This document shows, piece by piece, positions 1 through 23,089 of a stretch of 64,000 nt of DNA; the stretch's first letter is position 1, and the number at the start of each line of letters is the position of its first letter. The DNA comes from an uncultured Fidelibacterota bacterium (GTDB taxonomy: Bacteria > Fidelibacterota > Marinisomatia > Marinisomatales > Marinisomataceae), in the NCBI GenBank assembly GCA_902624575.1, contig CACNXV010000001.1, positions 44,553-108,552 of the forward strand, written 5' to 3'. The position numbers and the translations under genes were made by a program. The notes under the pieces are model-generated. The model did no database searches and was not told the DNA's origin. It saw nothing but the letters and a program-made list of their open reading frames with translations.

Positions 1-75
1 GGCTACACAGAAAATAATGAACAAAAAAAATAAAGCATCTTTTATTAGAGCGGCAAAGGAGGCATTAAATAAATA

Positions 76-930
76 ATGTTTAAAATTTTAAAAAGAGCTC
101 ATCTTGATTCAATGATATATTCATTAAAAAGTATTAAAGTAATCAAAGAATACGGATATAAACCTTTTGCTATAAATGATGAAAATTTATTTGATGTTGA
201 GGCAGGAGTAATGCCCAATTTCCCTGAAATTTCATATGACTTTAGCTTAAAAAATCCAGAATCAGAAAACGACTTAAAAAACTCAATTATTGTTTATGAA
301 GCTATAAAGGATGATATGTTTTGGTATAAAGCTACACAGCCTGAGTTTTGGGCTACAGTTTGTCACTTAAAATATTTTAATTATATAATAGATAGAATTG
401 ATGGCAATCTTAAAAATAAAGGTTCTTTTGAAAAGAGAATTATAAATCTTAATGAGAAAGATAAGGATGAACATTTAAAAATTGCAAATTTAATAAAAGG
501 TAATTTTTTCACAGATATCATGAATACTAATACCCGACTTTTATATAGAAATCCAATTGGGAAATTATGGTTAGTACCACATTTAACATATAGACCTTGG
601 GAAATTGAAGGTTTAGAGAATCTTGAACAAGAAGACGACTATTTTTATACAAAAATCGCATTTACACATTTAGATTTGTGTGCAAGTTTATTTGAAAGAC
701 CTTTAACAATTACTAATAAAAAGAAGCTTTTAAATACAATTATTTACTTTTTGAACGAAAAAAAAGATATTAGAACCTCTAGATCTAAAGAACATTACGT
801 AAATGATGAAGTCAGATATAGATGGTTTTTAAAAGAAGTAAAGCTTTGGATGGCTGTAAATCCTAGTTATTTAAATTATTCGTTCGATGAAATGATTAAA
901 TCTTTTAACAAAATTGAAGAAAAAATATAA
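76..930 (+). CDS. Hypothetical 284-aa soluble protein, first gene of the methyltransferase/HNH cassette; no family recognised
   Basis: Uninterrupted 855-nt ORF with an aaggagg Shine-Dalgarno-like element at 56-62. Its TAA stop (928-930) directly abuts the next ATG (931). I can name no catalytic motif with confidence. Confidence 0.6.
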   Translation: MFKILKRAHLDSMIYSLKSIKVIKEYGYKPFAINDENLFDVEAGVMPNFPEISYDFSLKNPESENDLKNSIIVYEAIKDDMFWYKATQPEFWATVCHLKYFNYIIDRIDGNLKNKGSFEKRIINLNEKDKDEHLKIANLIKGNFFTDIMNTNTRLLYRNPIGKLWLVPHLTYRPWEIEGLENLEQEDDYFYTKIAFTHLDLCASLFERPLTITNKKKLLNTIIYFLNEKKDIRTSRSKEHYVNDEVRYRWFLKEVKLWMAVNPSYLNYSFDEMIKSFNKIEEKI

Positions 931-1125
931 ATGACCGGAATTACATGCACTATTATACTTTTATCTTTATTCCTACTGTTTCTACCTGGAGGCAGTGAAT
1001 TAGTATTTACAAGGGAATTTCTCATACTTGCAGGCGGATTTTGGTTCTGCTGCTTTATTATTTGGTTGCTATTTGGTGATATTATAGATTATGTCTCAGG
1101 AGTTGACCGATATAATGACGAATAA
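931..1125 (+). CDS. Putative 64-aa membrane peptide with two hydrophobic helices
   Basis: The ATG starts on the base after the upstream stop. Two hydrophobic stretches are visible (ITCTIILLSLFLLFL and ILAGGFWFCCFIIWLLF). The segment looks less AT-rich than true intergenic DNA here. The 3' end overlaps the methyltransferase start. Confidence 0.4.
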   Translation: MTGITCTIILLSLFLLFLPGGSELVFTREFLILAGGFWFCCFIIWLLFGDIIDYVSGVDRYNDE

Positions 1126-2188
1126 AGCATCAAAATTAACCGTAGGTGGCCTTTTCTCAGGAATAGGAGGGTTAGAGCTTGCATTTCAAAATGAAGGCTT
1201 TAAAGTAGCCTGGGCTAATGATATTGATAAGTATACCCATCAAGTTTATAAAAGAGTTGTAGGATCTGATCATTATTTAGGTAATAAACCTATTTCGCTT
1301 GAATATATTAACGAACATTTTAATGAGTTTGATATTCAACCCGTAGATGTATTAACTGCTGGTTTTCCCTGCCAGCCATTTTCTAATGCAGGATATCGTG
1401 AAGGGTTTAAGGATAAAAAGGGAAGAGGAAACTGCTTTAATTGGATGATGGATTTTATTGATCATTTCAATCATAAAGATAAACCAAAGGTTTTATTATT
1501 TGAAAATGTCAAAAATATTGAAACTCATGACGGCGGAAATACAAAACATGTTATTGAGAAAGAACTCAAGAAAAGGGATTATTTTGGAAGATTTATCCAT
1601 TTAAATACATCGCTTATTACAGATATTCCTCAAAACAGAGAAAGAGTATTCATGGTTTATGTGAAAGACGGAGATGACTTATTATTTGAAAATATTAGTA
1701 ACTCCAAACTTTCATCATTATTGACGCTAAAACAAAGTGCAAAAAAAAGAAATTTTAGAGAATTTTTGGAAGATCAAGTAACAAACCCTAATTACTATCG
1801 TCACTATGATAAAAAAACCAGTGATTGGTGGAATACCCTGGAAATGCCAGACGGTGAAATTACAGATGATTCAGTATTTCAAGTTAGAAGGGTTTACGTT
1901 AGAAAAAATAAAAAAAATGAATGTCCAACACTTGTAGCAAGTATGGGAGCTGGTGGACACAATGTTCCTTTAATTAAAGACAAGGTTGGTATTCGATATA
2001 AAAGATTTAAACTAACAACTAGAAAATTAACACCTCGAGAATGTTTTAGGCTGCAGGGTTATAATGATTTCTCTTTAAAAGATATTTCAGATGCTCAGCT
2101 TTATAAAATGGCAGGAAATACCGTTACTTTGCCATTAGTTCAAAAAATTGCAAAAATATTAAAGGAGTATATCAATGGAGAAAAATGA
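1091..2188 (+). CDS. DNA (cytosine-5)-methyltransferase
   Basis: Canonical m5C-MTase motifs in order: I LFSGIGG, IV GFPCQPFS, VI ENV, VIII QNRERVF, IX RKLTPRECFRLQGY, X GNTVTLP. An alternative start at 1115 is possible. Confidence 0.95.
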   Translation: MSQELTDIMTNKASKLTVGGLFSGIGGLELAFQNEGFKVAWANDIDKYTHQVYKRVVGSDHYLGNKPISLEYINEHFNEFDIQPVDVLTAGFPCQPFSNAGYREGFKDKKGRGNCFNWMMDFIDHFNHKDKPKVLLFENVKNIETHDGGNTKHVIEKELKKRDYFGRFIHLNTSLITDIPQNRERVFMVYVKDGDDLLFENISNSKLSSLLTLKQSAKKRNFREFLEDQVTNPNYYRHYDKKTSDWWNTLEMPDGEITDDSVFQVRRVYVRKNKKNECPTLVASMGAGGHNVPLIKDKVGIRYKRFKLTTRKLTPRECFRLQGYNDFSLKDISDAQLYKMAGNTVTLPLVQKIAKILKEYINGEK

Positions 2189-2852
2189 ACGATCTATTGA
2201 ACAAGAAATTCTTTATAAGGGCCTAGAAAAGACAATACATTATTATTTTGAAATGTATGATAAGACTAAAAATGGTGAAAGATTCATAAAACAAGAATCA
2301 TATAATATTGAGCACTTAAAAGGTTTAAAACCTTTGTACGGTGTTGGAAAGAATGTTCAAAATGATATCATTGATATAATCGATAAAAATAAATACTTAC
2401 TTGAAAATAGCATTATAAATAAAAAAAATAATAATTTAAAGATGCTACCAAATCAAGAAGCTGGCAACGATGACATAACCTTAAAACGATTGATTAGTCA
2501 AAAAATAAGAAAAGGGCAGCAAAAGTTTAGAAATAACTTATTAGTTAATTTTTCTAAAAAATGCTGTATATCAAATTGTAATGTTATAGATGTTCTAGAA
2601 GCGTGTCATATATATAAATTTTCTTCGTCAGGTATAAATCACTCATCTAATGGGTTATTGTTAAGAAGAGACATACATAAATTGTTTGATAATGGGCAAA
2701 TTAAAATAAATCCTAATTCAATGAAAATTGAAGTAAATAAAACTTTAATTGATACAGAATATTATAAATTTAATAATAGTAAGATATCTAAAGATATTTA
2801 TGGTAAATTTCCAAATAAGAATTTTTTAATAAAAAAATATAATGAACATTAA
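2175..2852 (+). CDS. HNH endonuclease (HNH_2-type core), presumptive restriction nuclease
   Basis: C-terminal RKGQQKFRNNLL...CCISNC...LEACHIYKF...SNGLLLRRDIHKLFDNGQI matches the HNH_2 pattern (R.GQ..FR / C..C / H / N / H.LFD). The N-terminal ~115 aa are unassigned. The start overlaps the MTase 3' end by 14 nt. Confidence 0.85.
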   Translation: MEKNERSIEQEILYKGLEKTIHYYFEMYDKTKNGERFIKQESYNIEHLKGLKPLYGVGKNVQNDIIDIIDKNKYLLENSIINKKNNNLKMLPNQEAGNDDITLKRLISQKIRKGQQKFRNNLLVNFSKKCCISNCNVIDVLEACHIYKFSSSGINHSSNGLLLRRDIHKLFDNGQIKINPNSMKIEVNKTLIDTEYYKFNNSKISKDIYGKFPNKNFLIKKYNEH

Positions 2853-2890
2853 GTTTACGCATAATATATATTATGTATAATTAGATATAT

Positions 2891-3562
2891 ATGAAATACA
2901 CACTAGGTAAAACAACAAGAATATTATTACTCTCTTACCTCGGCTTCTTAAGCCTAGCAGCAATGTTCTATGGTGGTGGTAATTACGTCGAGAAACAGAC
3001 ACCCTACTATAATTTTTTTAAAAACTTTATAAGTGATTTAGGACGCACAACAAGTCATTCTGGTGATGATAATACAATATCAATAATACTTTTTTCGATT
3101 GGTATGTTGATCCAAATTATTGCTGCTTTCATATATTTATTTAATGCTGCTAATTACTTTTCATTAGAAATGCCTAAAATTAGTATAGTAGCTAAAATAT
3201 CAGCATTATTAGGTTCAATTAGCTTGCTAGGAGTTGTTTTCACTCCAGCAGACGTTCCATCATTATATGGTTTACATATTTTCTTTGCAAATTCAGTATT
3301 TAACTGTGCTTTAGTTACTCTAGGCATATATTCTTACCTTTTTTACTCGAAAGGCTTAAAAAATGTTACTTTTACCCTTTTCTTATGCTCAGCTATAGTT
3401 TTTGGTTATATAGTTTTTCTTGAAATAGGTCCTGCACCATGGAAATCTATAAACACGCTAACAATGCATGCTACATTTCAAAAAATAGCTGTATTAAGCC
3501 TTGTAGGTACAATTTGGGTTATGTCTAAAGGAACAGATCTACTTGACAACAAAGTTCAATAA
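2891..3562 (+). CDS. Multi-pass membrane protein, DUF998-like
   Basis: About 6 hydrophobic helices and an ISDLG motif. The family name comes from memory only. Confidence 0.5.
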
Positions 3563-5980
3563 TCTATTCTGAACATATATTGTTTTAACAACAGATCCTA
3601 AACTTGTAAATTTTTCTACATTTTCAAGAGATAATGCCTCTGAAATGACATCTTCTTCTTTAGAATCCTTTGGAACTTCAATATTTGCTCTGAGTTTGCC
3701 GTTAACTTGAACTGCTATTGTGACATTATCAAGCTGAATTAAGCTTTCATCGTAAGACGGCCAATTTTGATATGAAACTGAGTTTTTATTTCCTAGAATT
3801 GACCATAGTTCTTCAGATAAATGTGGTACAAAAGGCGCAATTATTATTATAAGCTCTTCTACCAATTCTCTCGATAAAGATTCACATTTTTGCATATGGT
3901 TGCAGTAAATCATTAACTGAGAAACAGCTGTATTAAAATGAAGATTTTCTATGTCTTCACCTATCTTTTTAATTGTTTGATTGTGAATAAAAAGAGTTTC
4001 ATTGTCAGGTTCAATATCTTCTTTAATTCTCGACGACAAGCTACCGTTTTCATTGATAATTATTGACCATAATTTATTTACAAATCTATAGCATCCTTGA
4101 AGACCTTTAGTGCTCCATGGCTTAGATTTGTTTAATGGACCCATAAACATTTCATATAGTCGCATTGAATCAGCGCCATATTCATCAATAATTACTTCAG
4201 GATTTATTACATTTCCACGAGATTTACTCATTTTTGTACCGTCATCACCGAGAATCATTCCTTGATTATACAGTTTTTTAAATGGTTCTTTTGTAGAAAC
4301 AAGCCCCAGATCAAATAAAACGTGGTGCCAAAATCTTGAATACAACAAATGAAGGACAGCATGTTCTTGTCCTCCTATGTACAAATCAACTGGCATCCAA
4401 TAATTTTCTTTTTCTTTTGACCATGCTTTGGAACTGTTATTTGGATCAGTAAATCTTAAAAAATACCAACAAGAACCTGCCCATTGTGGCATTGTATTTG
4501 TTTCTCTAAGACCAATAATATTATTATTTACATCTCTTACTTCAACCCAACTATTAATGTTAGATAATGGAGACTTTCCATCATCTGATGGCTTATAATT
4601 ATCTACTTCTGGAAGCAATACAGGTAGCTCATTTTCTTTGACTGTTTCAATCTTTGCCTCAGTGTGAATTATCGGAAATGGTTCTCCCCAATAACGCTGT
4701 CTTGAAAATAGCCAATCTCTAAGCTTGTAATTAACTGTTGCTTTTCCAATTCCAGATTTAGATATATAATCAATAGCTTTGCTTACTCCTTCGTCAACTG
4801 TAAGATCATTCAAAGTGATAGTGTCTTCATTATTAGAGTTAATTATCTTTGCATTACCTTTTGCTGTATAAGCAGCTTCATTGACATTTCCTCCTTTGAT
4901 AACTTCAATTATAGGGAGGTTATATTTATTTGCAAACTCCCAATCTCTTTCATCATGTCCTGGAACAGCCATGATAGCTCCAGTTCCGTAGCTAATGAGA
5001 ACATAATCAGCTATCCAAATTTCAATTTTTTCTTTACTAAATGGGTTTATCGCAAAAGAGCCGGTAAATACACCAGTTTTGTCTTTATTTACCTCAGTTC
5101 TATCGAAATCTGATTTCTTTTGTGTTTCTAAAATATAGTCATCTACAGATTTTTTTCTATCAGAAGATACTATTTTATCGACAAGAGGATGTTCTGGTGC
5201 TAATACCATATAAGTTGCGCCGAATAATGTATCAGGTCGGGTTGTATAAACATCAATTTTTTCACTAAAACCGTCAACATCAAAAGACAATTCAACGCCT
5301 TCTGATTTTCCAATCCAATTCTTTTGTAATTCTTTGATATTTTCAGGCCAGTCAAGATCATCTAGGCCTTCTAAAAGAGATTCTGCATAATCAGTGATTT
5401 TTAGTATCCATTGTTTCATTGGTAATCGTACAACTGGATGTCCTCCAATATCAGATTTACCATTTACCACCTCTTCATTGGCCAATACAGCTTTTAGCTC
5501 AGGACACCAATTAACATTCACTTCTTCTTCGTACGCTAAACCTTTATTGTAAAGTTGCAGAAATATCCACTGAGTCCAACGGTAATAATCTGGATCGGTT
5601 GTATTAATTTCTTTTGACCAATCATATGAGAAGCCCAGCTTATTGATTTGATTTTTAAAATTTTGAACATTTTCATGCGTTGTTATCTTGGGGTGAGTAC
5701 CTGTTTTAATCGCATATTGCTCTGCTGGCAGGCCAAAAGCATCCCAACCCATAGGATGAAGTACATTAAAACCTTTCATACGCTTATATCTTGCTACTAT
5801 ATCTGTGGCAACATAACCTAAAGCATGACCAACATGTAGACCTGCACCAGACGGATAAGGAAACATATCGAGCACATAATATTTAGGTTTATTACTTGAT
5901 TCGTCCTCTGATTTAAATGTGGAGTTTTCAGACCAATACTTTTGCCATTTGGCTTCAATTGTTTTGTGACTGTAGCCCAA
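3539..5980 (-). CDS. leuS: Leucyl-tRNA synthetase
   Basis: 813 aa with HIGH-type HVGH and KMSKS motifs and an N-terminus ([14 protein letters not shown]) typical of LeuS. TTG start codon. Confidence 0.97.
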
Positions 5981-5982
5981 GA

Positions 5983-6507
5983 TTAATAGAAGTTCTTTAT
6001 CTGCTCAATCCAATCAAGAATTATAGCATTAACATCAATTGGTCTATCTTCAACAGATCCATATCCACTGCTTTGAGACATAGAACTATTACCAAAAGCA
6101 TTTGTAGCAGGACCGCCATATTCATCATCAGCTAATACCTGATTTGCTTGAAATTTTGCAATTACTTTCTTGGTCTTTGGATCCATAAATTTTATAAATG
6201 ATGATTTTGGATCAGCTGTAGAGCCGTAGTATGGGTCAAAGTTAAAATCTTCGAAATTAATTTCAACCTCAAGATTTCCAACTTGATCTGGAGGAGTAAT
6301 TTCGAAACCTAACTTAACTAGTTCCGACTGAAGATTTTGAATGTGTTCAATCATGAACGGATCTTGAATATAGTCGTTAATAAATTCTTCAATTTTATTA
6401 GTTTCGCTTAGCTTAACCTTTTTTCTCCTAAACTGACCGTTCAAGTCAGCAGTAAAAATAATTAGTAATAAAGCACTTAGTAAATAAACATTTCTCGTAA
6501 GTTTCAT
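5983..6507 (-). CDS. Hypothetical secreted protein
   Basis: Signal-peptide-like [20 protein letters not shown]. No recognisable domain. The start was chosen at an internal Met of the 182-aa ORF. Confidence 0.55.
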
Positions 6508-8834: not shown

Positions 8835-10916
8835 CTACTTTTCTGGCTTGTCAGTCAATAGTTTAATACTAAAGTTAAGACGACCTTGTTTATCAATTTC
8901 AAAAAGTTTTATTTTAACTTTATCTCCGACACTTAGAACATCTTCAACTTTATTTACTCTTTCCCAAGCTAGTTGAGAAATATGTACTAAACCTTCTCTA
9001 CCCGGAGCAAATTCAACAAATGCGCCAAAATCTAGAAGCTTAGTAACTTTTCCATCAAAAACCGTTCCGACTTCTGGATCTAATACAACAGCTTTAATCT
9101 GTGTAATAGCATTGTCTAATTTTGCTTTATCTTCAGCAGATACACTAACTGTACCGTCGTCATCTATATTGATAACACACTCAGCTCCCTCTTGAAGAGC
9201 TTTAATGTTTTTACCGCCTGGCCCAATTAAAGCTCCAATCTTATCTTTAGGAATTTGGAAAGATTCAATCTGAGGCGCATATGGCGATATAGCGTTTGGT
9301 TTATCTATTGCCTTATTCATTTCATCAAGAATATGTAATCTGCCTTTATTTGCCTGTTCTAATGCGTTAGATAGGACATCCATAGACAGTCCTGGAACTT
9401 TTAAGTCTAATTGAATAGCACTAATACCATCTTTTGTACCAGCAACTTTAAAATCCATATCTCCTAAGAAATCCTCTGTACCTAAAATATCGCTAAGAAC
9501 AGCGTAATTGTCCTCATCATCCATAATAAGACCCATAGCAATTCCTGCTACGTGCTCTTTTATTGGTACGCCTGCATTCATCATAGCTAAAGAACCTCCA
9601 CAAACAGATGCCATTGAAGACGATCCGTTTGATTCAGTAATTTCTGATACAATTCGGACAGTGTATGGAAATTCTTCCGAAGAAGGCAATATAGGCTTTA
9701 GTGAACGTTCAGCCAAATGACCATGTCCAATTTCACGTCTATTAGTAAAACCAATTCTTCCTGTTTCTCCAACACAGTATGGAGGAAAATTGTAATGCAG
9801 TAAGAATGACTTTTTAAAGTCGCTTGCCATTGAATCGATTATTTGCTCGTCTCTACTTGATCCGAGAGTTAAAGCAGCAATAGACTGCGTTTCACCTCTT
9901 GTAAATAAAGCAGATCCATGAACTCTCGGAAGAATAGTTGGAACAATGCTTATATCTCTTATGTCTTCCAGTCCTCTACCATCAACTCTAACTTTTTTAT
10001 CTAATACAGTTTTTCTAACCGCATTTTTGAACATATTTTTAATATGGCCTTTTACTTCAGGATACATAACTTCATCTTCGACAAATGGTTCCAATGCTTC
10101 TTTTTCAATTGCATTGTATTCATCATCTCTTGCTTGTTTTGTATCCAACTCAAATATCTTCTCAATTTTAACTGAATAAGTATCATTAAGTGATTTTTCT
10201 ATTTCATCAGTAATAATTTTTGTATCAATCATTTCATAAGAATTATCAAAATTATCTGAAAATTCCATTTGAAGATCAACAATGTCATTAATACCATCCA
10301 TTGCAACATCGAGTGCTTCTAAAATTGTTTTTTCAGGAACAAAGTTTGAACCACCTTCAATCATACAAATTTTATCTTTTTTACCAGTAACCATAAGATC
10401 TAGATCAGATGATTCCATTTGCTCATGAGTTGGGTTTAAAACGTACTCTCCGTCAATTAAACCTACCTTAACAGAAGCTATAGGACCATCAAATGGTACA
10501 GGTGATAATAATAATGCTGCTGAAGCACCAATTGCTGCTACAACATCCGGCGTATTTACGCCATCATATGACATTGTTGTTAACATAATTTGCAACTCAT
10601 GTCTATAATTCTTAGGTATTAGAGGTCTAATTGGCCTATCAGTTAAACGTGAAGTTAAAACTTCAGCATCCGTAGGTTTTGCCTCTCTTTTAAAGAAACC
10701 ACCCGGTATTTTTCCACCGGCATAATGTTTTTCTCTATATTCAACCTGCATAGGGAGAAAGTCTATACCTTCTCTTGGTTCAGATGAACAACAAACTGTT
10801 GCAAGGATTGCAGTTTCTCCATAAGTAATAAATACAGATCCTCCTGCTTGTCTTGCTATTTGTCCAGATTCTATTTTAAGCGGTCTTCCCGCAATATTCT
10901 TTTCTACTTTTATCAT
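8835..10916 (-). CDS. pnp: Polyribonucleotide nucleotidyltransferase (PNPase)
   Basis: 693 aa with two RNase PH-like halves plus C-terminal KH and S1 regions. Sits in the conserved position after rpsO. Confidence 0.97.
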   Translation of the reverse strand: MIKVEKNIAGRPLKIESGQIARQAGGSVFITYGETAILATVCCSSEPREGIDFLPMQVEYREKHYAGGKIPGGFFKREAKPTDAEVLTSRLTDRPIRPLIPKNYRHELQIMLTTMSYDGVNTPDVVAAIGASAALLLSPVPFDGPIASVKVGLIDGEYVLNPTHEQMESSDLDLMVTGKKDKICMIEGGSNFVPEKTILEALDVAMDGINDIVDLQMEFSDNFDNSYEMIDTKIITDEIEKSLNDTYSVKIEKIFELDTKQARDDEYNAIEKEALEPFVEDEVMYPEVKGHIKNMFKNAVRKTVLDKKVRVDGRGLEDIRDISIVPTILPRVHGSALFTRGETQSIAALTLGSSRDEQIIDSMASDFKKSFLLHYNFPPYCVGETGRIGFTNRREIGHGHLAERSLKPILPSSEEFPYTVRIVSEITESNGSSSMASVCGGSLAMMNAGVPIKEHVAGIAMGLIMDDEDNYAVLSDILGTEDFLGDMDFKVAGTKDGISAIQLDLKVPGLSMDVLSNALEQANKGRLHILDEMNKAIDKPNAISPYAPQIESFQIPKDKIGALIGPGGKNIKALQEGAECVINIDDDGTVSVSAEDKAKLDNAITQIKAVVLDPEVGTVFDGKVTKLLDFGAFVEFAPGREGLVHISQLAWERVNKVEDVLSVGDKVKIKLFEIDKQGRLNFSIKLLTDKPEK

Positions 10917-10924
10917 TTTCTTCT

Positions 10925-11194
10925 TTATCTTCCTCTTATCGATAGCTTATTAATTAACTCATCATAACTATCTAGTTTAGTTTTTCTTAAATACTTCAAT
11001 AGCTTTTTTCTTTGTGAAACTAGCTTAACTAAACCATGCTTAGAATGAACATCTTTCTTATGTGTTTTAACATGCTCTGTTAATGACCTTATGCGGTCTG
11101 TTAAAAACGCAATCTGCGCTTCACTACTACCAACATCTTTTACGTCTAGACCTGCGTCTTTCAGTAAGGAACTTGTTTCTTTACTATATTTCAT
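10925..11194 (-). CDS. rpsO: 30S ribosomal protein S15
   Basis: 89-aa basic protein with S15-like sequence (GSSEAQIAFLTDRI..LTEH...HKKD.HS..GL), immediately upstream of pnp. Confidence 0.97.
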   Translation of the reverse strand: MKYSKETSSLLKDAGLDVKDVGSSEAQIAFLTDRIRSLTEHVKTHKKDVHSKHGLVKLVSQRKKLLKYLRKTKLDSYDELINKLSIRGR

Positions 11195-12134
11195 ATTTCT
11201 CCTTAAAAGTATCTATCAATTTAATACATACTTCTTTATCATTTTCAATTTGTTTAATAAGCAACTCTTTGCTATCAAACTTTTTTTCATTACGAATTTT
11301 ATCTAAAAATTCGACATATATGTTTTCATCATATAAGTTGCCGAATTTATCAGATAATATGTGAACTTCCATAACAAATTTTTTTTCGTTAAAAGTTGGT
11401 CTTATACCAGCATTACACATCCCAAAATACTTTTTGCCGTCGACAAATACTCTTGTTAAATAAACCCCAACACCTGGAACGAGCTGTTTATTAAAATTTG
11501 GAATAAAATTGGCTGTGGGATATTTCATTGTTTTTCCTCTTTGAGAACCTTGGACAACAGTTGCATCAAAACCATAAAATTTACCCATTAATTTTTGTAC
11601 ATCCTGCAATCTACCATCCATAATAAGTTTTCTAATAATACTACTGGAAACTAATTCATTATCAATTTTTCTCATAATTGGGTGATGCAGTTCAATATTA
11701 TTTTCTTCACAAAAATTCGTTAAAAAATTAAAGTCCCCTTCTTTTTTATGTCCAAAATAATGATTTGTACCTACAGAAATTAATTGAGGATTAAAAAGTT
11801 TTCTAATAATCTTCTCAGCAAAATTATTAGCAGGCATTTTTGAAAACTCTTCCGTAAAAGGTATTACTAACACTTTGTTTATACCTATTTCTTTAAAAGA
11901 TTCTAATCGTGATTCAATGCTTTGTAAGTTAACTGAAATTTTATCATTAAATAAAATGTAAACTGGATTTGGAAAAAATGTAATAATACATGAAGGAACC
12001 TTTCTTTTTTCTGCTTCCCTAACAAGGAATTTTAGTACATCTTGATGTCCCTTATGTACTCCATCATAGTTACCAACAGTTAAAACTGAGCTTTCTAGCT
12101 TTTTAAAGTCTTCAATAGATTTTATTATTTCCAT
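11184..12134 (-). CDS. ribF: Bifunctional riboflavin kinase / FAD synthetase
   Basis: N-terminal GNYDGVHKGH nucleotidyltransferase motif and a C-terminal riboflavin kinase region (KYPTANF). Confidence 0.93.
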   Translation of the reverse strand: MEIIKSIEDFKKLESSVLTVGNYDGVHKGHQDVLKFLVREAEKRKVPSCIITFFPNPVYILFNDKISVNLQSIESRLESFKEIGINKVLVIPFTEEFSKMPANNFAEKIIRKLFNPQLISVGTNHYFGHKKEGDFNFLTNFCEENNIELHHPIMRKIDNELVSSSIIRKLIMDGRLQDVQKLMGKFYGFDATVVQGSQRGKTMKYPTANFIPNFNKQLVPGVGVYLTRVFVDGKKYFGMCNAGIRPTFNEKKFVMEVHILSDKFGNLYDENIYVEFLDKIRNEKKFDSKELLIKQIENDKEVCIKLIDTFKEKYEI

Positions 12135-12763
12135 TCGCTCTTAAACCTGTCAATAGTTAAAGAATGATCTATATGGTGATCTCCAACAGATAATCTTGTT
12201 AATTTTGATAAATAACCAACTGTATTAAGCTTTTTAGCTATATCTTCCGCTAAAACACGAATATATGTACCAGAGGTGCATGTTACAGTAATTTTTAAAG
12301 AACTATCTGATATTGCTTCAATGAGAAGGTTTTTAATAGTAACCATTTTTGGATTAGTTTTTATCTCAACATTTTTTCTGGCCAATTTGTACAATCTGAC
12401 ACCATTAATTTTTCTAGCAGAAAACATTGGCGTTCTTTGAAGCTGTTCACCCATAAAACTAGATTCGCACATTCTAAGTTGATCATTAGAAATTTTAGGT
12501 ATTTCTTTTTCTTCAACTACATTACCAGTTAAATCCATAGAATCCGTTCTTTTTCCAAGTTCTAAAACGCCTTCATACGATTTATCAAATTGAATAATTT
12601 CAGAGAGAAGTTTGGTTGATTTACCAACACCTAAGACCAATACACCATCTGCAAATGGATCTAAAGTACCTGAATGACCAACTTTTTGATTTGTAATTCT
12701 TTTGACTTGTTTTACCACTGAAAATGATGAACAATCGTTTGGTTTGTAAATATTAAAAATCAT
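12125..12763 (-). CDS. truB: tRNA pseudouridine(55) synthase
   Basis: GHSGTLDPFADGVLVLGVGKSTK catalytic-Asp motif. Conserved position between rbfA and ribF. Confidence 0.9.
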   Translation of the reverse strand: MIFNIYKPNDCSSFSVVKQVKRITNQKVGHSGTLDPFADGVLVLGVGKSTKLLSEIIQFDKSYEGVLELGKRTDSMDLTGNVVEEKEIPKISNDQLRMCESSFMGEQLQRTPMFSARKINGVRLYKLARKNVEIKTNPKMVTIKNLLIEAISDSSLKITVTCTSGTYIRVLAEDIAKKLNTVGYLSKLTRLSVGDHHIDHSLTIDRFKSEWK

Positions 12764-13110
12764 TAATCAATCTTCTTTATCAATTTATCTATTTTCTCAA
12801 ACTGTTCAAATGAATCATCATAAAAAAACTTAAGTGTGGGTGTTGAACGTAGATTTAAGCTCATAGATAAGTTTTTTCTAAAAATTGGTACTAAATTATT
12901 TATTTCTTGATTGATCCTTTCTAGATCCATTTTTGGATTAATTACACTGTAATAAAGGTTCGCATGCTTTAAATCCGATGTCATTTTTACATTTGAAAAA
13001 GTTATAAAACCATATTTTCTAAGATCAAGATCTCGTGATATGATTTCATTGATTGTTTTTAATACTTGCTGAGATACTCTTTCAGCTCTAGAAAATGGTT
13101 TATTGTTCAA
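12763..13110 (-). CDS. rbfA: Ribosome-binding factor A
   Basis: 115 aa with an RbfA-like N-terminus (R..RV...) and conserved infB-rbfA-truB synteny. Confidence 0.88.
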   Translation of the reverse strand: MNNKPFSRAERVSQQVLKTINEIISRDLDLRKYGFITFSNVKMTSDLKHANLYYSVINPKMDLERINQEINNLVPIFRKNLSMSLNLRSTPTLKFFYDDSFEQFEKIDKLIKKID

Positions 13111-15452
13111 TTGTCTGCTAATGTTCTCTTGATTTCGTTTATTTTAAAAGCAACGATTCTGTCACCCTCAAAGAATTTTTTTACACCTTCAATGGCAATA
13201 CCGCACTCTAATCCTGTTTCAACAGTATTAACGTCATCTTTAAATCTTTTTAAAGATGTTATGCTTCCTTTTGAAATCAACTCTTCTTCTTCTCTGATAA
13301 GTCTTACATGACTATCTCTTGTAATTTTACCTGATTCAACTTGTGAACCCGCAATAAAACCAATTTTAGGAATCTTAAATGACTCTTTAACTACAGCAAC
13401 TCCAATAACCTCTTCAACTAAATCAGGTTTTAATAGACCTTCAACTGCAAGTTTTATGTCTTCAACAACTTGATATATGATATTATAAGCTCTTATTTCA
13501 ACATTATTTTGATTTGCTAAGAGCTTTGAGTTAGATGGAATTTGAACCCCAAAACCTATAACAACTGCGTTTGATGTTTGGGCTAACAATACATCTGATT
13601 CTGAAACGTTACCTACGCCTTTATGAACAATATCTACACCAACTTCATCATTATTGATTTTTTCAATACTTTGAATCAAAGCTTCAATAGATCCATCTGA
13701 ATCAGCTTTAATAATAATATTTAAGTTATTTATATCACCTTCTTTGATTTGTGCAGAAATCGTATCTAGAGAAGTTTTTTGAACCATTTGTAAATCAATT
13801 TCTCTCTTAATTCTCTGTCTTTCGTTAGCAATTTTCTTTAAATCTGATTCATTAGAAACTTCAGCAAATATATCACCTGACTGCGGCACTTGATCAAAAC
13901 CTAGAATTTGTACTGCATCGGAAGGTTTAGCTTCTTTAATTCTTTCATTTTTTTCGTTCATAATGGCTCTAACTTTACCTGGAAAATTATTGCAAATAAA
14001 TGGGGTACCAATTTTTAAAGTTCCTTTTTGTATTAATACTGTAGCTACCGGACCTAAACCTTTATCAAGCCTTGAATCAATTACAACACCTTTACAATCT
14101 ATTTCAACATTAGCTTTTAAATCTAATACTTCAGATTCTAATAAAATTGCTTCCATTAAATTGTCAATACCCTCTCCAGTAATTGCTGAAGTATTGACTG
14201 ATTGAATTTTTCCACCCCATTCTTCAACTAAAACATTCTTTTCTGATAATTCTCTTTTTACGATATCAGGATTCGCTCCTTGTTTATCAATTTTATTGAT
14301 TGCTACAATAATTGGCACTTCAGCTGCTTTAGCATGATTTATAGCTTCAATTGTTTGAGGCATTACACTGTCATCTGCAGCGACGACTAAAATAACAATA
14401 TCTGTGGATTGAGCTCCTCTAGCTCTCATAGCAGTAAATGCTTCATGTCCAGGTGTATCTAAAAATGTTATTTTATTTTCATTGTGTAAGACCTGATAGG
14501 CTCCAACTCTTTGAGTTATTCCTCCAGATTCTCCTGCAGCAACTTTAGTTTCTCTAATATAATCCAATATTGATGTTTTTCCATGGTCTACATGACCCAT
14601 AATTGTTACAACTGGAGCTCTTTTTGAAGCATTTGATAGCTCTTCTTCTGTGTGCGAAGTAACAAAAAGGTCATCAACAACTTCTTCATATTTATTTAAT
14701 TCAACATCATATTCACCGGCAATCAGCTCAATAACATCCCATTCTAAGCGTTGATTTACAGTTGCTAAAATTCCAATCTGCAAACATTTACTAATTACTT
14801 CACTAGTAGTCACATCTAAAACTTTAGCTATTTCATCAATACTTGCATATTCTGCTAACTCAATAGTTCTTTTTTCGTCACCAGAAAGATCTTTTGAATC
14901 TTTCTTTGCTTTTTTATAAGACTTCTTTTTTGGACTTGAATCCATTGAAGCTAATGTTTTTTTGAGTCTTTTTATTGCAGAACTGTCTTTTTTAAGCTCT
15001 TCTTTGTCTTTACGTGCTGTCTTTTTGTCTTCTGGTTTTTCTGGCTGCCTTAAAGATATTTTTCTTAATTTCTTTTTAGGCTTTGGCTCTACAGAAGTTT
15101 TTTCATCTGAAGTTTTTACTTTCTTGTCTAAATCTTCAATCTTTTTTTCAGCTTTTTTTGCACCACTTTTACGCTGATCTTCAACAGACATTATTTTAAA
15201 TTTTTTAACAGATTTAGTTTTCATGACTACTTTTGAATCATGAATCTCTTTTCTAACCTGCTCTTTTCTATCTCTTTCTGCAGATTGTCTATCTTTTGCG
15301 AACTCTGTGTAGACTAGCTGTTGAGTCTTACCATCTATCGGTGACATATGACTTGAAACTGAAATGTCTTTAGATTTAAGAAAATCTAATATGTCATTGT
15401 GTGATATATTTAGCTCTTTTGCAAGTTGAAATATTCTAATAGAATCAGTCAT
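13107..15452 (-). CDS. infB: Translation initiation factor IF-2
   Basis: G-domain motifs GHVDHGKTS, DTPGHEAF and NKIDK, with a Lys-rich N-terminal region. Confidence 0.97.
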   Translation of the reverse strand: MTDSIRIFQLAKELNISHNDILDFLKSKDISVSSHMSPIDGKTQQLVYTEFAKDRQSAERDRKEQVRKEIHDSKVVMKTKSVKKFKIMSVEDQRKSGAKKAEKKIEDLDKKVKTSDEKTSVEPKPKKKLRKISLRQPEKPEDKKTARKDKEELKKDSSAIKRLKKTLASMDSSPKKKSYKKAKKDSKDLSGDEKRTIELAEYASIDEIAKVLDVTTSEVISKCLQIGILATVNQRLEWDVIELIAGEYDVELNKYEEVVDDLFVTSHTEEELSNASKRAPVVTIMGHVDHGKTSILDYIRETKVAAGESGGITQRVGAYQVLHNENKITFLDTPGHEAFTAMRARGAQSTDIVILVVAADDSVMPQTIEAINHAKAAEVPIIVAINKIDKQGANPDIVKRELSEKNVLVEEWGGKIQSVNTSAITGEGIDNLMEAILLESEVLDLKANVEIDCKGVVIDSRLDKGLGPVATVLIQKGTLKIGTPFICNNFPGKVRAIMNEKNERIKEAKPSDAVQILGFDQVPQSGDIFAEVSNESDLKKIANERQRIKREIDLQMVQKTSLDTISAQIKEGDINNLNIIIKADSDGSIEALIQSIEKINNDEVGVDIVHKGVGNVSESDVLLAQTSNAVVIGFGVQIPSNSKLLANQNNVEIRAYNIIYQVVEDIKLAVEGLLKPDLVEEVIGVAVVKESFKIPKIGFIAGSQVESGKITRDSHVRLIREEEELISKGSITSLKRFKDDVNTVETGLECGIAIEGVKKFFEGDRIVAFKINEIKRTLADN

Positions 15453-16931
15453 TTATTGATTTTCCTCTTTGACTTCTTCTTTTTCTAAATCAGTTACTTC
15501 TTCAACTACTTCTTCTTCATTACTTGCATCTTCTTCAACAACCTCTTCTTGAACCACTTCTTCAGCATTACCTTCGTCTACATCAACATCATTTGAAGTT
15601 TCTTTATTTTCTTCAACAGAAATATCTAAATCTGCTGTCAACGCCTCAATATCGACTACTTCTTCTTTATCTTTATTGTGGGTTGTGTTTATAAAATGGT
15701 TAACTGCTTCACTAATATCATTAATATCTTCTGCTGATAGTTCTAAATCGTTTGTTAAGACTGATTTTTGTGCACCTAAATAATCAGCGACTGTTAAAAT
15801 CTCAAGATTTTTTAACTTTTTAGCCAAAGTCTTTTTCATACCTTCAAGTGATTCTAACGTTGTTTTTTGATTAATTAAAAGCTCATCATATTCTGACTTA
15901 GTATAAGCATCAATAGTAAATCCTGTCAGTTTTGAAGCTAGATTTATATTTACACCACTTCTTCCGACGGCATTTTCTAGACCACCTTCTTCAAAAATTG
16001 CGACACAATATTTTCTATCGTCATCAATATACAAGTCAACTGGCTTAGCTGGAGAAAGTGCTCTTGAAATAAATACTTCAGATTTCTCTGTGTAGTTAAC
16101 AATATCAATTTTTTCATTGTTTAACTCTCTAACAACAGACTGAATTCTACTACCTCTCATTCCTACACATGCTCCAACAGCATCGATTCTCTTATCAACT
16201 GAATGAACAATAATCTTACTTCTTTCTCCTGGCTTTCTAGCAATACCCTTAATTTCTATAATACCATCTTCAATTTCTGGTACTTCCATTTCAAATAGTT
16301 TATACAAGAATAAATCATCACTCCTAGAAATTAAAATATCTGGTCCTTTAGGTGTAACTTCGACAGACTTTACAAGTGCTCTAATAGTATCTCCTCTACG
16401 AAAACGCTCAGAATATATTTGTTCATTTCTAGGCATTCTAAGTTCAGTTTGTTCAATATTCACAAAAGTGTTTTCTCTGTGAACTTGATGTACGGTCCCA
16501 ATAATTACTTCTCCAATTCTTTGTACATAGTCTTCATAAATATACTGTTGTTGAACCTCTCTAGTTCTTTTATTTAAAAACTGTCTTGCATTTGCAACAA
16601 GTCTTCTACCAAATCTTGCTGGATCTATAACTTCAACAAAAGTATCTCCTAACTTTAATTCACCTGCTAAATCAGGCTCTAACTCAACAGCTCTTTCCAA
16701 GGTTATATCAAAATGATCATCATCGACTTCTTCTACAATTGTTTTTTCAACATAAATTTCAATCTCACCTTTATCTAGATTTACAATAACACTACAATTA
16801 TCAGATTCTCCTGTTTCTTTTTCAATTATAAACAAAAATAATTGTTCGATTATTGTACCAAGCTCTGAACGCTCAATGTTTTTTTCACGAGCAAGTTCAA
16901 TAAAAATTTCAATTAAATCTCTATTTATCAT
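15453..16931 (-). CDS. nusA: Transcription termination/antitermination factor NusA, with an acidic C-terminal tail
   Basis: NusA N-terminal, S1 and KH regions, immediately upstream of infB. The C-terminal ~70 aa are rich in Glu and Val. Confidence 0.95.
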   Translation of the reverse strand: MINRDLIEIFIELAREKNIERSELGTIIEQLFLFIIEKETGESDNCSVIVNLDKGEIEIYVEKTIVEEVDDDHFDITLERAVELEPDLAGELKLGDTFVEVIDPARFGRRLVANARQFLNKRTREVQQQYIYEDYVQRIGEVIIGTVHQVHRENTFVNIEQTELRMPRNEQIYSERFRRGDTIRALVKSVEVTPKGPDILISRSDDLFLYKLFEMEVPEIEDGIIEIKGIARKPGERSKIIVHSVDKRIDAVGACVGMRGSRIQSVVRELNNEKIDIVNYTEKSEVFISRALSPAKPVDLYIDDDRKYCVAIFEEGGLENAVGRSGVNINLASKLTGFTIDAYTKSEYDELLINQKTTLESLEGMKKTLAKKLKNLEILTVADYLGAQKSVLTNDLELSAEDINDISEAVNHFINTTHNKDKEEVVDIEALTADLDISVEENKETSNDVDVDEGNAEEVVQEEVVEEDASNEEEVVEEVTDLEKEEVKEENQ

Positions 16932-16951
16932 AACTATCCTTTAATTTTTTC

Positions 16952-16960
16952 ATTATAACA
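16952..16960 (-). promoter_or_regulatory. Possible extended -10 promoter element (TGtTATAAT) for nusA-infB
   Basis: The - strand reads tgttataat about 20 nt upstream of the nusA ATG, directly after the terminator hairpin. No convincing -35 element. Confidence 0.35.
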
Positions 16961-16962
16961 AA

Positions 16963-16980
16963 AATGGGCCGTAGCCCATT
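16963..16980 (-). terminator. Rho-independent terminator after the TPR-like gene
   Basis: Hairpin aatgggc-cgta-gcccatt. On the - strand it is followed by tttttg. Confidence 0.7.
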
Positions 16981-17027
16981 AATAAATCATCGAAATATAT
17001 TATATTAAATCGGTTTATACAAGCAAC

Positions 17028-17675
17028 TTAGTTTAAAGTCAAAGCTGATCCATAAACCTCTTCAAAAAGTTCATTATAAACAACAATACTATTGTCTATA
17101 GCATCAAGAATTGATAATGCGCGTTCTTTTTCATTATTTTTAACAAGTTTCTCTGCTTTCATTATCATTATTAACTTTTGTTCAGACGTAGATAATGCAT
17201 TTTTATGTGCATTATCAAAGTGTTTTAAGGCTTTTTCAGTATCATTCTCAAGCTTTCCTAACATCATATAAGCTTCTTTCTTTAAAGGCGCATATTTTAG
17301 TTTTTTAACACTCTCAGATACATACAATTTTGCCTTGTCATTATTGCCATTTAAGAATGCAGTTCTTCCTAAGTAAAATCTGGCTTGATGAGACGCGGCT
17401 GTACCAGGATATGTGTCTAATATATCTTCAAGCTGTAATATTGCATTATCAAAATCACCACGTTCAAAAAAAACCATTGCATTACCCAGTGCGGAATCTG
17501 AGGGAGTGGCTTCCGGTTCATTTGATAGAGAAAATGCCTGGAAAGTAACAATAAATACTATAGCGAATAAGAAAATAGGATTTAATATAATTTTATCAAA
17601 AGAATTGTAATCCTTGGTGTCTTTATATGAAACCTTTATAGGGGTTATTAATAGTTTTTTAATTTTGTCTAACAT
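17028..17675 (-). CDS. Membrane-anchored TPR-like protein (YfgM-like architecture)
   Basis: One N-terminal TM helix (ILNPIFLFAIVFIVTF) followed by TPR-like helical repeats. Confidence 0.55.
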   Translation of the reverse strand: MLDKIKKLLITPIKVSYKDTKDYNSFDKIILNPIFLFAIVFIVTFQAFSLSNEPEATPSDSALGNAMVFFERGDFDNAILQLEDILDTYPGTAASHQARFYLGRTAFLNGNNDKAKLYVSESVKKLKYAPLKKEAYMMLGKLENDTEKALKHFDNAHKNALSTSEQKLIMIMKAEKLVKNNEKERALSILDAIDNSIVVYNELFEEVYGSALTLN

Positions 17676-17678
17676 TTT

Positions 17679-18716
17679 CTACTTCCAATAGTTAAATAAT
17701 TTATAAAGTTTAGGCCTAAATTTAGCAGATAATTTTGCACTTGTAACCTTTTTATTTTTATCCTTTCTTAATAATTCTCTTTCATCAAAATCTATATTTT
17801 TGAAATTTTTACAATCATAAGAACAACAATCCTCAAATTTTAAAGAACATTCATCGCACTGAATAAATAAGATGTGACAAGTGTCATTTTTACAATTTTT
17901 ATGATTATCAGATGATTTGTAACATTGATGACAATGTGATATTACATCTCTAGTAATCCTTTCGCCAATTCTATCATCAAATACGAAATTTTTGCCAATA
18001 AAAAGCGATTTTAATTTATTTTCTTTTAGATCATGAGCATACTGAATTATACCTCCATCTAGCTGATATACTTCCTTAAATCCTTTCTTTAAAAGGTAAG
18101 AACTTGCTTTTTCACATCTTATACCACCAGTACAATATAAATGAATTTTTTTATTTTTATGTTTACTAAGCATTTTATTTACTTTAGGTAACAATTCTTT
18201 TGAAAAATGAGCATTAGGTGTTATCGCATTTTTAAATTTACCAACTTCACTTTCGTAATAATTCCTCATGTCGACAACTATGGAGTCCTTGTCTTGAATT
18301 GAACTATGAAAATCTTTTGGTTTTAAATGCTTGCCAACTACGCTCATGTCATATTCATTTTTTGATAACTTGTATGCAACTATTTCATCTTTTACTAAAA
18401 TTTTAAGCTTGATAAACGAACTTCCCTCTTTCAATGCATACTTAAATTTCATGTCATGAAAAATATCAATTTCATGAATATTTTTTTTCAAAATACTAGT
18501 ATTATGTTCTGGAATACTAATTTGGGCATTTATACCTTCGGATGAAACATAGACCCTTCCAAGAATATTCAAATCACTAAATCTTTCGTATAATAAATCT
18601 CTTAATTGAGTAGGATTATCAATTTTTATATACTTGTAAAAAGAACAGGTTTTTCTACAAAAACGCTCGTTCTCTAAGTCTTTTTTTAATTCAATTCTTG
18701 ACTTTTTGTTGAACAT
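17679..18716 (-). CDS. trhO: Rhodanese-domain protein of the TrhO/YceA (UPF0176) family, tRNA U34 hydroxylase
   Basis: Rhodanese active-site loop CTGGIRCEK and a Cys-rich C-terminal extension. Confidence 0.85.
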   Translation of the reverse strand: MFNKKSRIELKKDLENERFCRKTCSFYKYIKIDNPTQLRDLLYERFSDLNILGRVYVSSEGINAQISIPEHNTSILKKNIHEIDIFHDMKFKYALKEGSSFIKLKILVKDEIVAYKLSKNEYDMSVVGKHLKPKDFHSSIQDKDSIVVDMRNYYESEVGKFKNAITPNAHFSKELLPKVNKMLSKHKNKKIHLYCTGGIRCEKASSYLLKKGFKEVYQLDGGIIQYAHDLKENKLKSLFIGKNFVFDDRIGERITRDVISHCHQCYKSSDNHKNCKNDTCHILFIQCDECSLKFEDCCSYDCKNFKNIDFDERELLRKDKNKKVTSAKLSAKFRPKLYKLFNYWK

Positions 18717-18733
18717 AAAGAATGTTAATAGAA

Positions 18734-18767
18734 AAAGAGCCTATTAACAATAATTAATAGGCTCTTT
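18734..18767 (-). terminator. Rho-independent terminator
   Basis: Perfect 13-bp stem (aaagagcctatta / taataggctcttt) with an 8-nt loop. A T-run follows on the - strand. Confidence 0.75.
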
Positions 18768-18789
18768 AATTATATAGATTTAGTTATAT

Positions 18790-23005: not shown

Positions 23006-23089
23006 GCCGGGGTGGCGGAATTGGTAGACGCGCTGGTCTCAAACACCAGTGAGATTTATCTCATGTCGGTTCGAGCCCGACCCTCGGTA
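23006..23089 (+). tRNA. tRNA-Leu (anticodon CAA), no encoded CCA
   Basis: Hand-folded cloverleaf: acceptor gccgggg/cctcggt, anticodon arm ctggt-ctCAAac-accag, long variable arm, T-arm gtcgg-ttcgagc-ccgac. Confidence 0.9.

Follow-up and report, generated by a model that had tools for sequence, protein, structure and literature searches.

A GHKL ATPase operon with a DUF6339 gene and linked cytosine methylase in a candidate restriction-type defence island beside leuS

MORC-type GHKL ATPases silence transposons in animals and plants, and are linked there to DNA methylation. The paraMORC2 GHKL ATPases were described in 2008 by Iyer, Abhiman and Aravind (Biol Direct 3:8, PMC2292703), with a predicted role in restriction-modification (R-M) through DNA looping; in the passages of that paper that define them, their hallmark is a strongly conserved ExxxH motif within the S5/transducer domain. 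A second description is that of PDC-M33, which Payne et al. 2024 (bioRxiv 10.1101/2024.01.29.577857) put forward among 145 "guilt-by-embedding" candidates, all untested. Their supplement gives it as cassette CAS_00129, made up of three protein families, and it was picked up through embedding in BREX, DISARM or Type I R-M systems. The locus reported here is of a kind that these two studies already catalogue, at candidate status. It lies at the left edge of the window, by which we mean the whole stretch of 64,000 nucleotides analysed, from an uncultured Fidelibacterota bacterium (GenBank assembly GCA_902624575.1, contig CACNXV010000001.1, positions 44,553 to 108,552 of the forward strand). Its four complete open reading frames (ORFs) encode a DUF6339 protein (ORF1), a small membrane protein (ORF2), a 5-methylcytosine (m5C) methylase of the Dcm family (ORF3) and an HNH nuclease (ORF4).

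We read window positions 2 to 2852 as the right portion of a defence island that measures about 6.5 kb and is inserted beside leuS in a low-GC marine bacterium, and the island as a methylation-linked, ATP-driven, GHKL-based defence system of the restriction type. To island and mechanism taken together we assign a probability of roughly 0.55. The genes of the GHKL operon are named S, A, B and C, of which C is ORF1; M is ORF3, R is ORF4, and the triad is A-B-C. The unit comprises at least seven genes, in the order S-A-B-C-ORF2-M-R. A preliminary description of this DNA had instead proposed an undescribed cassette of four genes. A carries the paraMORC2 hallmark of 2008, and the triad is the PDC-M33 of 2024.

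The four plus-strand ORFs (Table 1) and their junctions are exactly as first described from the ORF listing. The ATG of ORF2 directly follows the TAA of ORF1, ORF2 and ORF3 overlap by 35 nucleotides (nt), and ORF3 and ORF4 by 14 nt. The cassette does run against the prevailing orientation, since the other long ORFs of the window are mostly on the minus strand. The picture of co-directional, tightly coupled, defence-related genes, two of which (ORF1 and ORF2) exceed the needs of a canonical Type II system, is likewise borne out, as is the suspicion that the system is larger than the window shows. The peptide ATQKIMNKKNKASFIRAAKEALNK, encoded at window 2-76, is identical to the C-terminus of the protein encoded at 5312-6166 of the related NCBI contig L001, which matches PADLOC PDC-M33B at 4.6e-26. 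The TAA stop of this upstream B gene shares one base with the ATG of ORF1 (TAATG), and the operon thus extends beyond the left edge of the window. In L001, where ORF1 is 100% identical, a 651-amino-acid (aa) A gene product (PDC-M33A, 3.6e-53) and the 284-aa B are encoded directly upstream of C and contiguous with it, in the PDC-M33 order A>>B>>C. Exact-sequence look-ups find both as recorded proteins (P0087 and P0137) of an NCBI contig of 144,462 bp, a length shared by the contig recorded for the exact ORF1-4 sequences.

ORF1, for which no role could at first be assigned, belongs to Pfam family DUF6339 (PF19866; 68 bits over residues 65-247, E = 1.1e-18, gathering cut-off 23.2 bits) and matches PADLOC PDC-M33C (PDLC04586) at 4.2e-15. 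The family is small, with 83 representatives at E < 1e-3 among 1.8 billion proteins, and W92 and R107 are invariant across its alignment. The AlphaFold2 model of ORF1 is mainly alpha-helical (predicted local distance difference test (pLDDT) 93.4, predicted TM-score (pTM) 0.90). Foldseek finds no match to it in the PDB or BFVD, and a profile search of the PDB with C finds no sequence relative. A HEPN reading of C was rejected: the family consensus has R-x6-H, but the arginine is not kept in the window protein (QPEFW...H) and is not among the invariant columns, and no HEPN fold is matched. One DUF6339 protein encoded after a B gene (P0076) is fused to an NgoFVII-type B3-like DNA-binding domain (5.7e-16), which is 40% identical to the corresponding domains of restriction endonucleases (REases) that neighbour the triad elsewhere.

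Some DUF6339 proteins are longer. Those of 346-360 aa in L027 (12738-13805), L030, L032, L051, L084 and L091, mainly from Bacillota, have an acidic linker and a common C-terminal module of about 55 aa, IPPLAKxLLGxxxGDxVxFxGKxYxIxxI, which by eye resembles the C-terminal motif of GreA/GreB and is without a Pfam match. In L071 (12718-14349), a 543-aa ORF joins DUF6339 to a weak PAPS_reduct match (E = 4e-4, below cut-off) and could be a DndC-like domain fusion or an artefact of ORF calling.

A belongs to the GHKL (Bergerat-fold) ATPases and has a transducer/S5 domain. In an alignment of 16 homologues, the GHKL motifs are invariant at E40/N44/D47, D126/T129/G131, G161/G164/G166/K167 and T242, within the segments RESIQNSLDA (E40, N44, D47), ISDYNTVG (D126, T129, G131), GGSFGxGK and GTDIY (T242). 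Also invariant in the 16 sequences is E420-x3-H424 (ENPxHDxW), which follows the transducer-domain strands of the AlphaFold2 model. That model has a pLDDT of 74, with high values over the N-terminal 460 residues, and closes with a disordered linker and a beta-sandwich. Its Foldseek matches include Topo VI-B (8.5e-10), GRP94/Hsp90 (1e-6), MORC2 (1e-5), SMCHD1 (3e-5) and the ParE ATPase-transducer region. The Pfam HATPase_c models do not match A, and PDB sequence profile searches with A, B and C gave nothing significant. The modules of Topo VI-B, MutL and MORC proteins are the closest to the predicted structure, with ATPase and transducer aligned over about 450-760 columns, but the identity is 7-11% and the TM-scores are 0.3-0.4. 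Moreover, A has its linker and C-terminal beta-sandwich rather than the MutL C-terminal domain, Topo VI-A elements or a CW/coiled-coil region, and no Toprim/Spo11-like partner for it was identified.

A fits the description of the paraMORC2 group in motif, architecture, taxonomic spread and neighbourhood. The N-terminal GHKL domain with ATP-binding motifs and the conserved ExxxH motif (E420/H424) are both present. Many members are Gram-positive, and the neighbourhoods contain DNA methylases, mostly cytosine methylases, and Vsr, as in the relevant passages of the 2008 paper (PMC2292703). Those passages describe paraMORC2 without equivalents of B, C or S and without experiments, and the distribution of A found here is broader, including Bacteroidota, Chloroflexota and Candidate Phyla Radiation (CPR) bacteria. 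PDC-M33 agrees with this locus in that ORF1 matches the C models and the two upstream genes of the lineage match A and B, in the same order. It differs in being a three-gene candidate with no stated function, whose models contain neither S, the GHKL identity of A, the adjacency to Dcm and Vsr, ORF2, nor the nuclease slot.

B has no known relative in family searches, and an alignment of 36 sequences is invariant only at P10 and W237. A Toprim/Spo11-like nuclease reading of B, by analogy with Topo VI, is unsupported, as these 36 sequences have no invariant acidic residue. S is a fourth gene 5' of A, of about 75 codons, which is found in 27-29 loci and also in the window's lineage (hidden Markov model (HMM) E = 4e-21). 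It matches no Pfam or PADLOC model and stands outside the PADLOC PDC-M33 models. S often overlaps A by 4 nt. Unannotated genes in the same direction abut S in marine islands (L001 2491-2961, 156 aa; L002 2099-2812, 237 aa), and the two proteins have the stretch SW[VI]LCE[LI]RD in common. L102 has further unannotated co-directional genes of this kind (4213-4758, 181 aa; 4976-5164, 62 aa). All of these genes may be extra components of the system.

The distribution of the operon was surveyed in species-representative genomes. Back-translation scans with DUF6339 alignments were unusable because no stretch is conserved enough, and the A alignment was used for the scan instead. It gave at least 272 relatives, of which the best-scoring 80 loci were analysed, from Bacillota, Bacteroidota, Chloroflexota, Proteobacteria, Elusimicrobiota, Cyanobacteria, Acidobacteriota, Actinomycetota and CPR bacteria. 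The scan found no close relative of the A of the window's lineage. A, B and C were located by custom HMMs, the neighbours were clustered and their representatives annotated with Pfam, and neighbours were counted over 75 loci. The three genes stand side by side in one orientation in about 75 of 78 loci, which span at least 10 phyla and amount to essentially every locus with enough sequence. No locus with enough upstream sequence has an ORF1 homologue without A and B genes, which does not agree with the earlier proposal of ORF1 as a lone sensor or specificity subunit.

The triad adjoins DNA methyltransferase genes far above chance, and its commonest partner is an m5C methylase, with Vsr. A Dcm gene lies at most four genes away in 33 of the 75 loci and belongs to the same tight, co-oriented chain in 16. 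Vsr is found within the same distance in 21 loci, 18 of which also have Dcm; HsdM and Dam are found in nine each, and a ResIII-PLD helicase-nuclease in 12. In all, 50 of the 75 loci have a methylase defined by homology near the triad. As a control for residence in defence islands, the positions of Dcm genes within the 10-kb flanks of the triad were measured. Of 32 such genes, 21 lie at most 500 nt from the triad, 17 of them co-oriented with it. The density of Dcm genes within 500 nt is 28 per 100 kb; it drops to about 1 per 100 kb at 1.5-5 kb, with no Dcm gene farther away (binomial p = 2e-17). The methylase linkage, together with the fusion of DUF6339 to a restriction-enzyme DNA-binding domain, gives some support to the idea that ORF1 stands on the restriction side, though not as a lone subunit. 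The expectation that ORF1 homologues adjoin methylase and nuclease genes is partly upheld: the Dcm plus HNH pair is lacking in most loci, and some DNA methylase adjoins the triad in two thirds.

About eight loci have a Dcm-A-B-C(-Vsr) chain within which no other gene was called. The chain of L061, with Vsr, sits between uvrB and uvrA and contains no further gene call; that of L066, also with Vsr, is followed by a phosphotriesterase gene and is probably likewise free of other gene calls. Pectinatus (L024) has Dcm-S-A-B-C-HNH-Vsr, in which the HNH protein is of the same type as ORF4 (PADLOC HNH, 1.5e-84), and an Elusimicrobiota genome (L023) has A-B-C-Vsr-Dcm followed by an NgoFVII-like REase gene. 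In Ligilactobacillus salivarius, the module occurs on megaplasmids amid Type I and other R-M genes, where RefSeq labels A and B as hypothetical proteins.

The earlier identification of ORF3 and ORF4 by an m5C motif set and an HNH_2 core is correct, and by sequence the two genes have the make-up of an R-M pair. ORF3 matches PF00145 (3e-58, profile positions 3-323 of 324), TIGR00675 (6.6e-59) and PADLOC MTase_II (6.6e-75). Its motifs FSGIGG, PCQPFS, ENV, QNRERVF, RECFRLQGY and GNTV include the complete catalytic set of an m5C methyltransferase (PCQ, ENV, QxRxR, GN). Its nearest solved relative is M.HhaI (1e-33), whose residues 11-181 align with ORF3 residues 15-203. The start of ORF3 is ambiguous, as gene callers in related contigs take the ATG equivalent to window 1115 (357 aa), from which the overlap with ORF2 would be 11 nt. 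Membership of ORF3 in DISARM, Druantia or Mza was rejected, the DrmMII and DruM matches being generic to the Dcm family. The signature non-methylase parts of DISARM, Druantia, Mza and BREX were not found, and PADLOC scans of A, B and C gave only PDC-M33 at the E-value limits used. Mza is similar in having a GHKL ATPase, thought to control an anti-phage nuclease, and a link to a cytosine methylase, but such GHKL-ATPase systems are without counterparts of B, C and S. VcSduA differs in carrying DUF4263, whereas A has no fused nuclease domain.

ORF4 matches HNH_2 (PF13391, 1.9e-12), PADLOC HNH (3.8e-14) and the PADLOC model "HNH Type II restriction enzyme" (4.7e-10), and is thus an adjacent endonuclease of a Type II REase family; its N-terminal region, of about 100 aa, is uncharacterised. 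ORF4 has a weak PDB match to 6yex, an "HNH endonuclease" (E = 0.005), which we take to be the modification-dependent EVE-HNH enzyme VcaM4I. The match to NCBIfam PT-DNA_restrict covers only the nuclease core (34.8 bits, cut-off 180). The N-terminal modified-base reader domain of Type IV enzymes of the SRA/EVE/SBD-HNH type is not found in residues 1-105 by Pfam, NCBIfam or PADLOC. The 55 nearest relatives of ORF4 in metagenome contigs are solitary proteins, mostly of 300-390 aa, whose N-terminal parts have no Pfam domain. ORF4 may be either the cognate Type II enzyme or something else. Type II systems, in which an m5C methylase is paired with an HNH, PLD/NgoFVII-type or GIY-YIG nuclease, resemble this locus in the motifs of ORF3, in the 14-nt overlap and HNH Type II match of ORF4, and in the NgoFVII-like REase of one marine relative (below). 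They differ in that here a conserved membrane peptide links the pair, by translational chaining, to an ATPase operon of four genes.

Related marine contigs have different versions of the island at the same leuS site (Table 1). At this site the allelic groups are 30-35% identical in A, 23-30% in B and 31-41% in C, while the host leuS genes are 81-90% identical. Together with low GC contents (25.6% for ORF1 and 23.2% for ORF4, versus 31.2% for the window), this suggests a defence-like evolution of the locus. The slot held by ORF4 is occupied in the relatives by an NgoFVII-like, a GIY-YIG-like or a GIY_YIG_2 protein, so that with HNH_2 there are four unrelated nucleases. The methylases of variants 1 and 3 are near-identical across the variable region between motifs VIII and IX, and for this reason very probably mark the same sequence, yet the nucleases downstream of them are unrelated. 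The signs of cognate pairing are mixed, as M and R are swapped jointly in variant 2 while variant 3 has a 94%-identical methylase and an unrelated nuclease. The hotspot may also house another defence-like cluster. In L102 (1-3924; also in L103 and L107) the marine island has upstream of it genes for a protein of 1008 aa, a VWA protein and a PP2C phosphatase, and the opposite strand carries a GIY_YIG_2 gene.

The right boundary of the island lies where homology between the window and variant 2 restarts, at window 2854. All variants have the next gene, for a membrane protein of 223 aa, as well as leuS, and the identities of the two between genomes covary (72-90% and 81-90%). The preliminary label of the membrane protein as DUF998-like is weak, since the window protein has no DUF998 match and an orthologue (L002 9239-9901) has one of E = 1e-4, below cut-off. 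Window 1-2304, with ORF1, ORF2, ORF3 and the first 130 nt or so of ORF4, is 96% identical to L001 6091-8394, whereas window 2292-6000 is only 78% identical to L001 8469-12177, through leuS. The break falls within the HNH gene, whose product is 29 aa longer in L001. This drop in identity at about 2304 suggests that the left part of the island was exchanged horizontally and recently between the two strains.

The restriction-type reading would work as follows. M would methylate host DNA as a mark of self. A dimer of A, with B and C, would use ATP to clamp or loop DNA, by analogy with MORC, MutL and Topo VI-B, and on DNA without the mark the A-B-C complex would license or assist cleavage. Cutting would be done by the neighbouring nuclease where there is one, here the HNH protein; in chains of only Dcm-A-B-C(-Vsr), the complex itself would cut. 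C may be the subunit nearest to recognition of the DNA site. ORF2 would be an accessory of the marine clade, most likely a membrane anchor or regulator of the complex, and may couple translation of the A-B-C genes to that of M.

Several observations count against this reading. Neither B nor C showed a nuclease motif or a known fold, and none of the 55 nearest ORF4-like HNH proteins has a Dcm or triad gene beside it. A third of the surveyed loci have no methylase within four genes, and where there is one its family varies, so that passive embedding of an autonomous system also fits. The joint replacement of methylase and REase in variant 2 is as expected of an autonomous R-M unit. The surveyed loci, as the best-scoring 80 of at least 272, may be a biased sample. 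In the literature searched, including bacterial MORC defence work, there is no experiment on this GHKL/DUF6339 family, and no paper text mentions DUF6339 or PDC-M33.

The foremost alternative is that the locus consists of two independent neighbours: S-A-B-C (PDC-M33) would be autonomous and embedded for co-transfer or co-regulation, and ORF3 and ORF4 would be an ordinary Type II pair. The definition of PDC-M33 rests on guilt-by-embedding, and autonomy is frequent among embedded systems. The neighbours of the triad are diverse (Hachiman, Type I R-M, Dam pairs, helicases), and a dcm-vsr pair split by A-B-C is the expected look of an insertion. The loci without methylase and the exchange of M and R as a unit in variant 2 also speak for separate systems. 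However, the clustering of Dcm beside the triad is extremely tight, stop and start codons overlap in many phyla, and no other gene is called within the Dcm-A-B-C-Vsr chain of L061 and probably L066. DUF6339 is fused to the DNA-binding domain of an REase, and the nearly identical methylases followed by unrelated nucleases are awkward for a strictly cognate, sequence-specific R-M pair. We regard two independent systems as a serious but rather unlikely explanation.

Far less probable is a role of S-A-B-C in repair rather than immunity, in which a MutL-like ATPase complex would aid Vsr on T:G mismatches that arise from deamination of 5-methylcytosine. MutL stimulates Vsr in Escherichia coli, and A is a GHKL plus S5 ATPase like MutL. 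Vsr accompanies the triad in several Dcm-A-B-C-Vsr chains, once between uvrB and uvrA, and recruitment of such ATPases to mismatch repair is raised as a possibility in a passage of Iyer et al. (PMC2292703). However, the window island and the marine variants have no Vsr, and many triads lie beside m6A methylases or in plain defence islands. Vsr accompanies Dcm in any case, as the co-occurrence at 18 of 21 Vsr loci indicates, and extreme allelic divergence at one site, low GC and a patchy distribution are typical of defence and not of repair.

ORF2 is a real, conserved gene with two predicted transmembrane segments, as first described. It is the sole open frame in its stretch in three lineages, the other five frames carrying stops. 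The ratio of nonsynonymous to synonymous substitution (dN/dS) is 0.20-0.30 with dS > 1, and for this reason conservation at the level of DNA, as a recombination linker or RNA hairpin, was rejected. The hydrophobic segments span residues of about 3-20 and 29-52, and the C-terminal tail is acidic, not basic. Homologues form seven protein clusters, all marine, which are called genes of 63-64 aa with 60-98% identity. ORF2 is better conserved across the marine variants than A, B or C. In every variant it comes directly after DUF6339, and Dcm stands on its other side wherever the contig is long enough. Recombination between variants 1 and 3 has its junction within ORF2, which also contains two terminator-like hairpins on the plus strand (window 974-997 and 1033-1051). 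Four terminator-like sites were found in the region and 1.0 was expected from shuffles; the two hairpins may be chance or an attenuator between triad and methylase. A promoter scan of the locus was uninformative (26 sites, 23.2 expected), and the terminator-like hairpins fall within coding sequence.

No small hydrophobic ORF follows C in 76 other DUF6339 loci, and ORF2 is for this reason a clade-specific accessory, not a general effector of the DUF6339 system. The preliminary description had proposed a sensor with a membrane effector, that is, abortive infection in which ORF1 senses and a holin-like ORF2 kills by membrane damage beside a separate R-M pair. Small membrane proteins are the effectors of several known systems, and purifying selection acts on ORF2, which is conserved more strongly than any other gene of the marine cassette, but this explanation is about as improbable as the repair role, because ORF2 is not conserved family-wide in the proposed sensor operon, ORF1 is never seen without A and B where upstream sequence suffices, ORF2 accompanies Dcm as much as C, with a junction inside it, and its tail is acidic rather than basic.

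A bolder form of the restriction-type reading is that S-A-B-C, ORF2 and Dcm are the core of a new R-M class ("MORC-type R-M"), in which the GHKL complex would read methylation and interchangeable nucleases of low specificity would cut. We offer this as an unlikely, speculative proposal. It would explain near-identical methylases followed by HNH, GIY-YIG-like or GIY_YIG_2 nucleases, cassettes that show no separate nuclease gene, and the capture of an REase DNA-binding domain by DUF6339. In the marine clade, ORF2 would hold the complex at the membrane, where phage DNA enters.

Other genes recur near the triad. A protein of 835-887 aa with a sigma-70 region-4-like helix-turn-helix is encoded directly 5' of A in L039, L041, L064 (7455-10001), L070 and L087, after S in L039, L041 and L070. 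In Bacillaceae, a gene pair recurs beside the triad that encodes a MazG-like protein of 108 aa and a ResIII/Helicase_C/PLDc_2 protein of about 800 aa (Table 1). Pectinatus haikarae (L024) has tandem paralogous A-B-C triads (9872-13861 and 15897-19397), the first with Dcm, an HNH_2 gene and Vsr at its flanks. In L053 (11696-13349, Dehalococcoidia), two extra genes, of 453 aa and 79 aa, lie between A and B and may reflect insertion of a mobile element. In the window as a whole, an Rfam scan matched only seven tRNA genes, with no rRNA or riboswitch above threshold.

Table 1. Features of the window, marine variants at the leuS site, and examples of neighbouring genes
Feature	Sequence	Position	Strand	Basis or content
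3' end of PDC-M33B gene, 24 codons and stop	window	2-76	+	translation ATQKIMNKKNKASFIRAAKEALNK, then stop
ORF1 (PDC-M33C), DUF6339 protein, 284 aa; last gene of the S-A-B-C GHKL-ATPase operon	window	76-930	+	Pfam, PADLOC
ORF2, 64 aa, two predicted transmembrane segments; bridges ORF1 and the methylase gene	window	931-1125	+	open frame, dN/dS
ORF3, m5C DNA methyltransferase, 365 aa; alternative start ATG 1115	window	1091-2188	+	PF00145, TIGR00675, PADLOC
ORF4, HNH_2 (beta-beta-alpha-Me) nuclease, 225 aa; variable nuclease slot after the methylase	window	2175-2852	+	PF13391, PADLOC
Right island boundary; the host flank begins with the membrane protein gene 2891-3562 and includes leuS	window	2853-2890		homology to variant 2 restarts at 2854
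tRNA genes	window	23006-23089, 38684-38757, 40202-40288, 45354-45438, 49043-49215, 61763-61846		Rfam
Marine variant 1	window, L001			after S-A-B-C-ORF2: Dcm, HNH_2
Marine variant 2	L002-L007			after S-A-B-C-ORF2: different Dcm (43% identical), NgoFVII-like REase
Marine variant 3	L102-L110			Dcm 94% identical to ORF3, then 276-aa protein with weak GIY-YIG signature (E = 1e-3, below Pfam cut-off)
Marine variant 4	L115-L118			Dcm 78% identical, GIY_YIG_2 (169 aa)
Marine variants 5 and 6	L113, L119			contigs stop at or just past ORF2
S gene	L001	2961-3191		directly upstream of PDC-M33A
S gene	L002	2813-3040		directly upstream of PDC-M33A
S gene	L011	9772-9990		directly upstream of PDC-M33A
S gene	L035	9661-9894		directly upstream of PDC-M33A
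MazG-like and helicase-PLD gene pair	L047, L055, L058, L072, L073, L074	L074: 14298-14624 and next gene (about 800 aa)		

What is new at this locus is the conserved membrane peptide, the variable nuclease slot and the extreme diversity of alleles at a single site. From the survey come the S subunit, the assignment of PDC-M33A to the GHKL ATPases, the figures on Dcm adjacency and the fusion of DUF6339 to a B3 domain. PDC-M33/DUF6339 is thereby raised from an anonymous candidate to a system with a defined ATPase core, an extra subunit and a statistically supported methylase partner. The leuS site is a natural experiment, in which four divergent alleles of the ATPase operon, four unrelated nucleases and two types of methylase are combined with one invariant membrane protein. 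Together with the minimal Dcm-A-B-C-Vsr cassettes, in which no other nuclease gene is called, it makes the R-M prediction of 2008 directly testable. If the link to the methylase is functional, the family would represent a new mode of restriction; if it is not, the locus would be a clean case of the embedding of one defence system in another. Should the GHKL complex indeed read methylation, it would be a prokaryotic precedent for the methylation-responsive function of eukaryotic MORC proteins.

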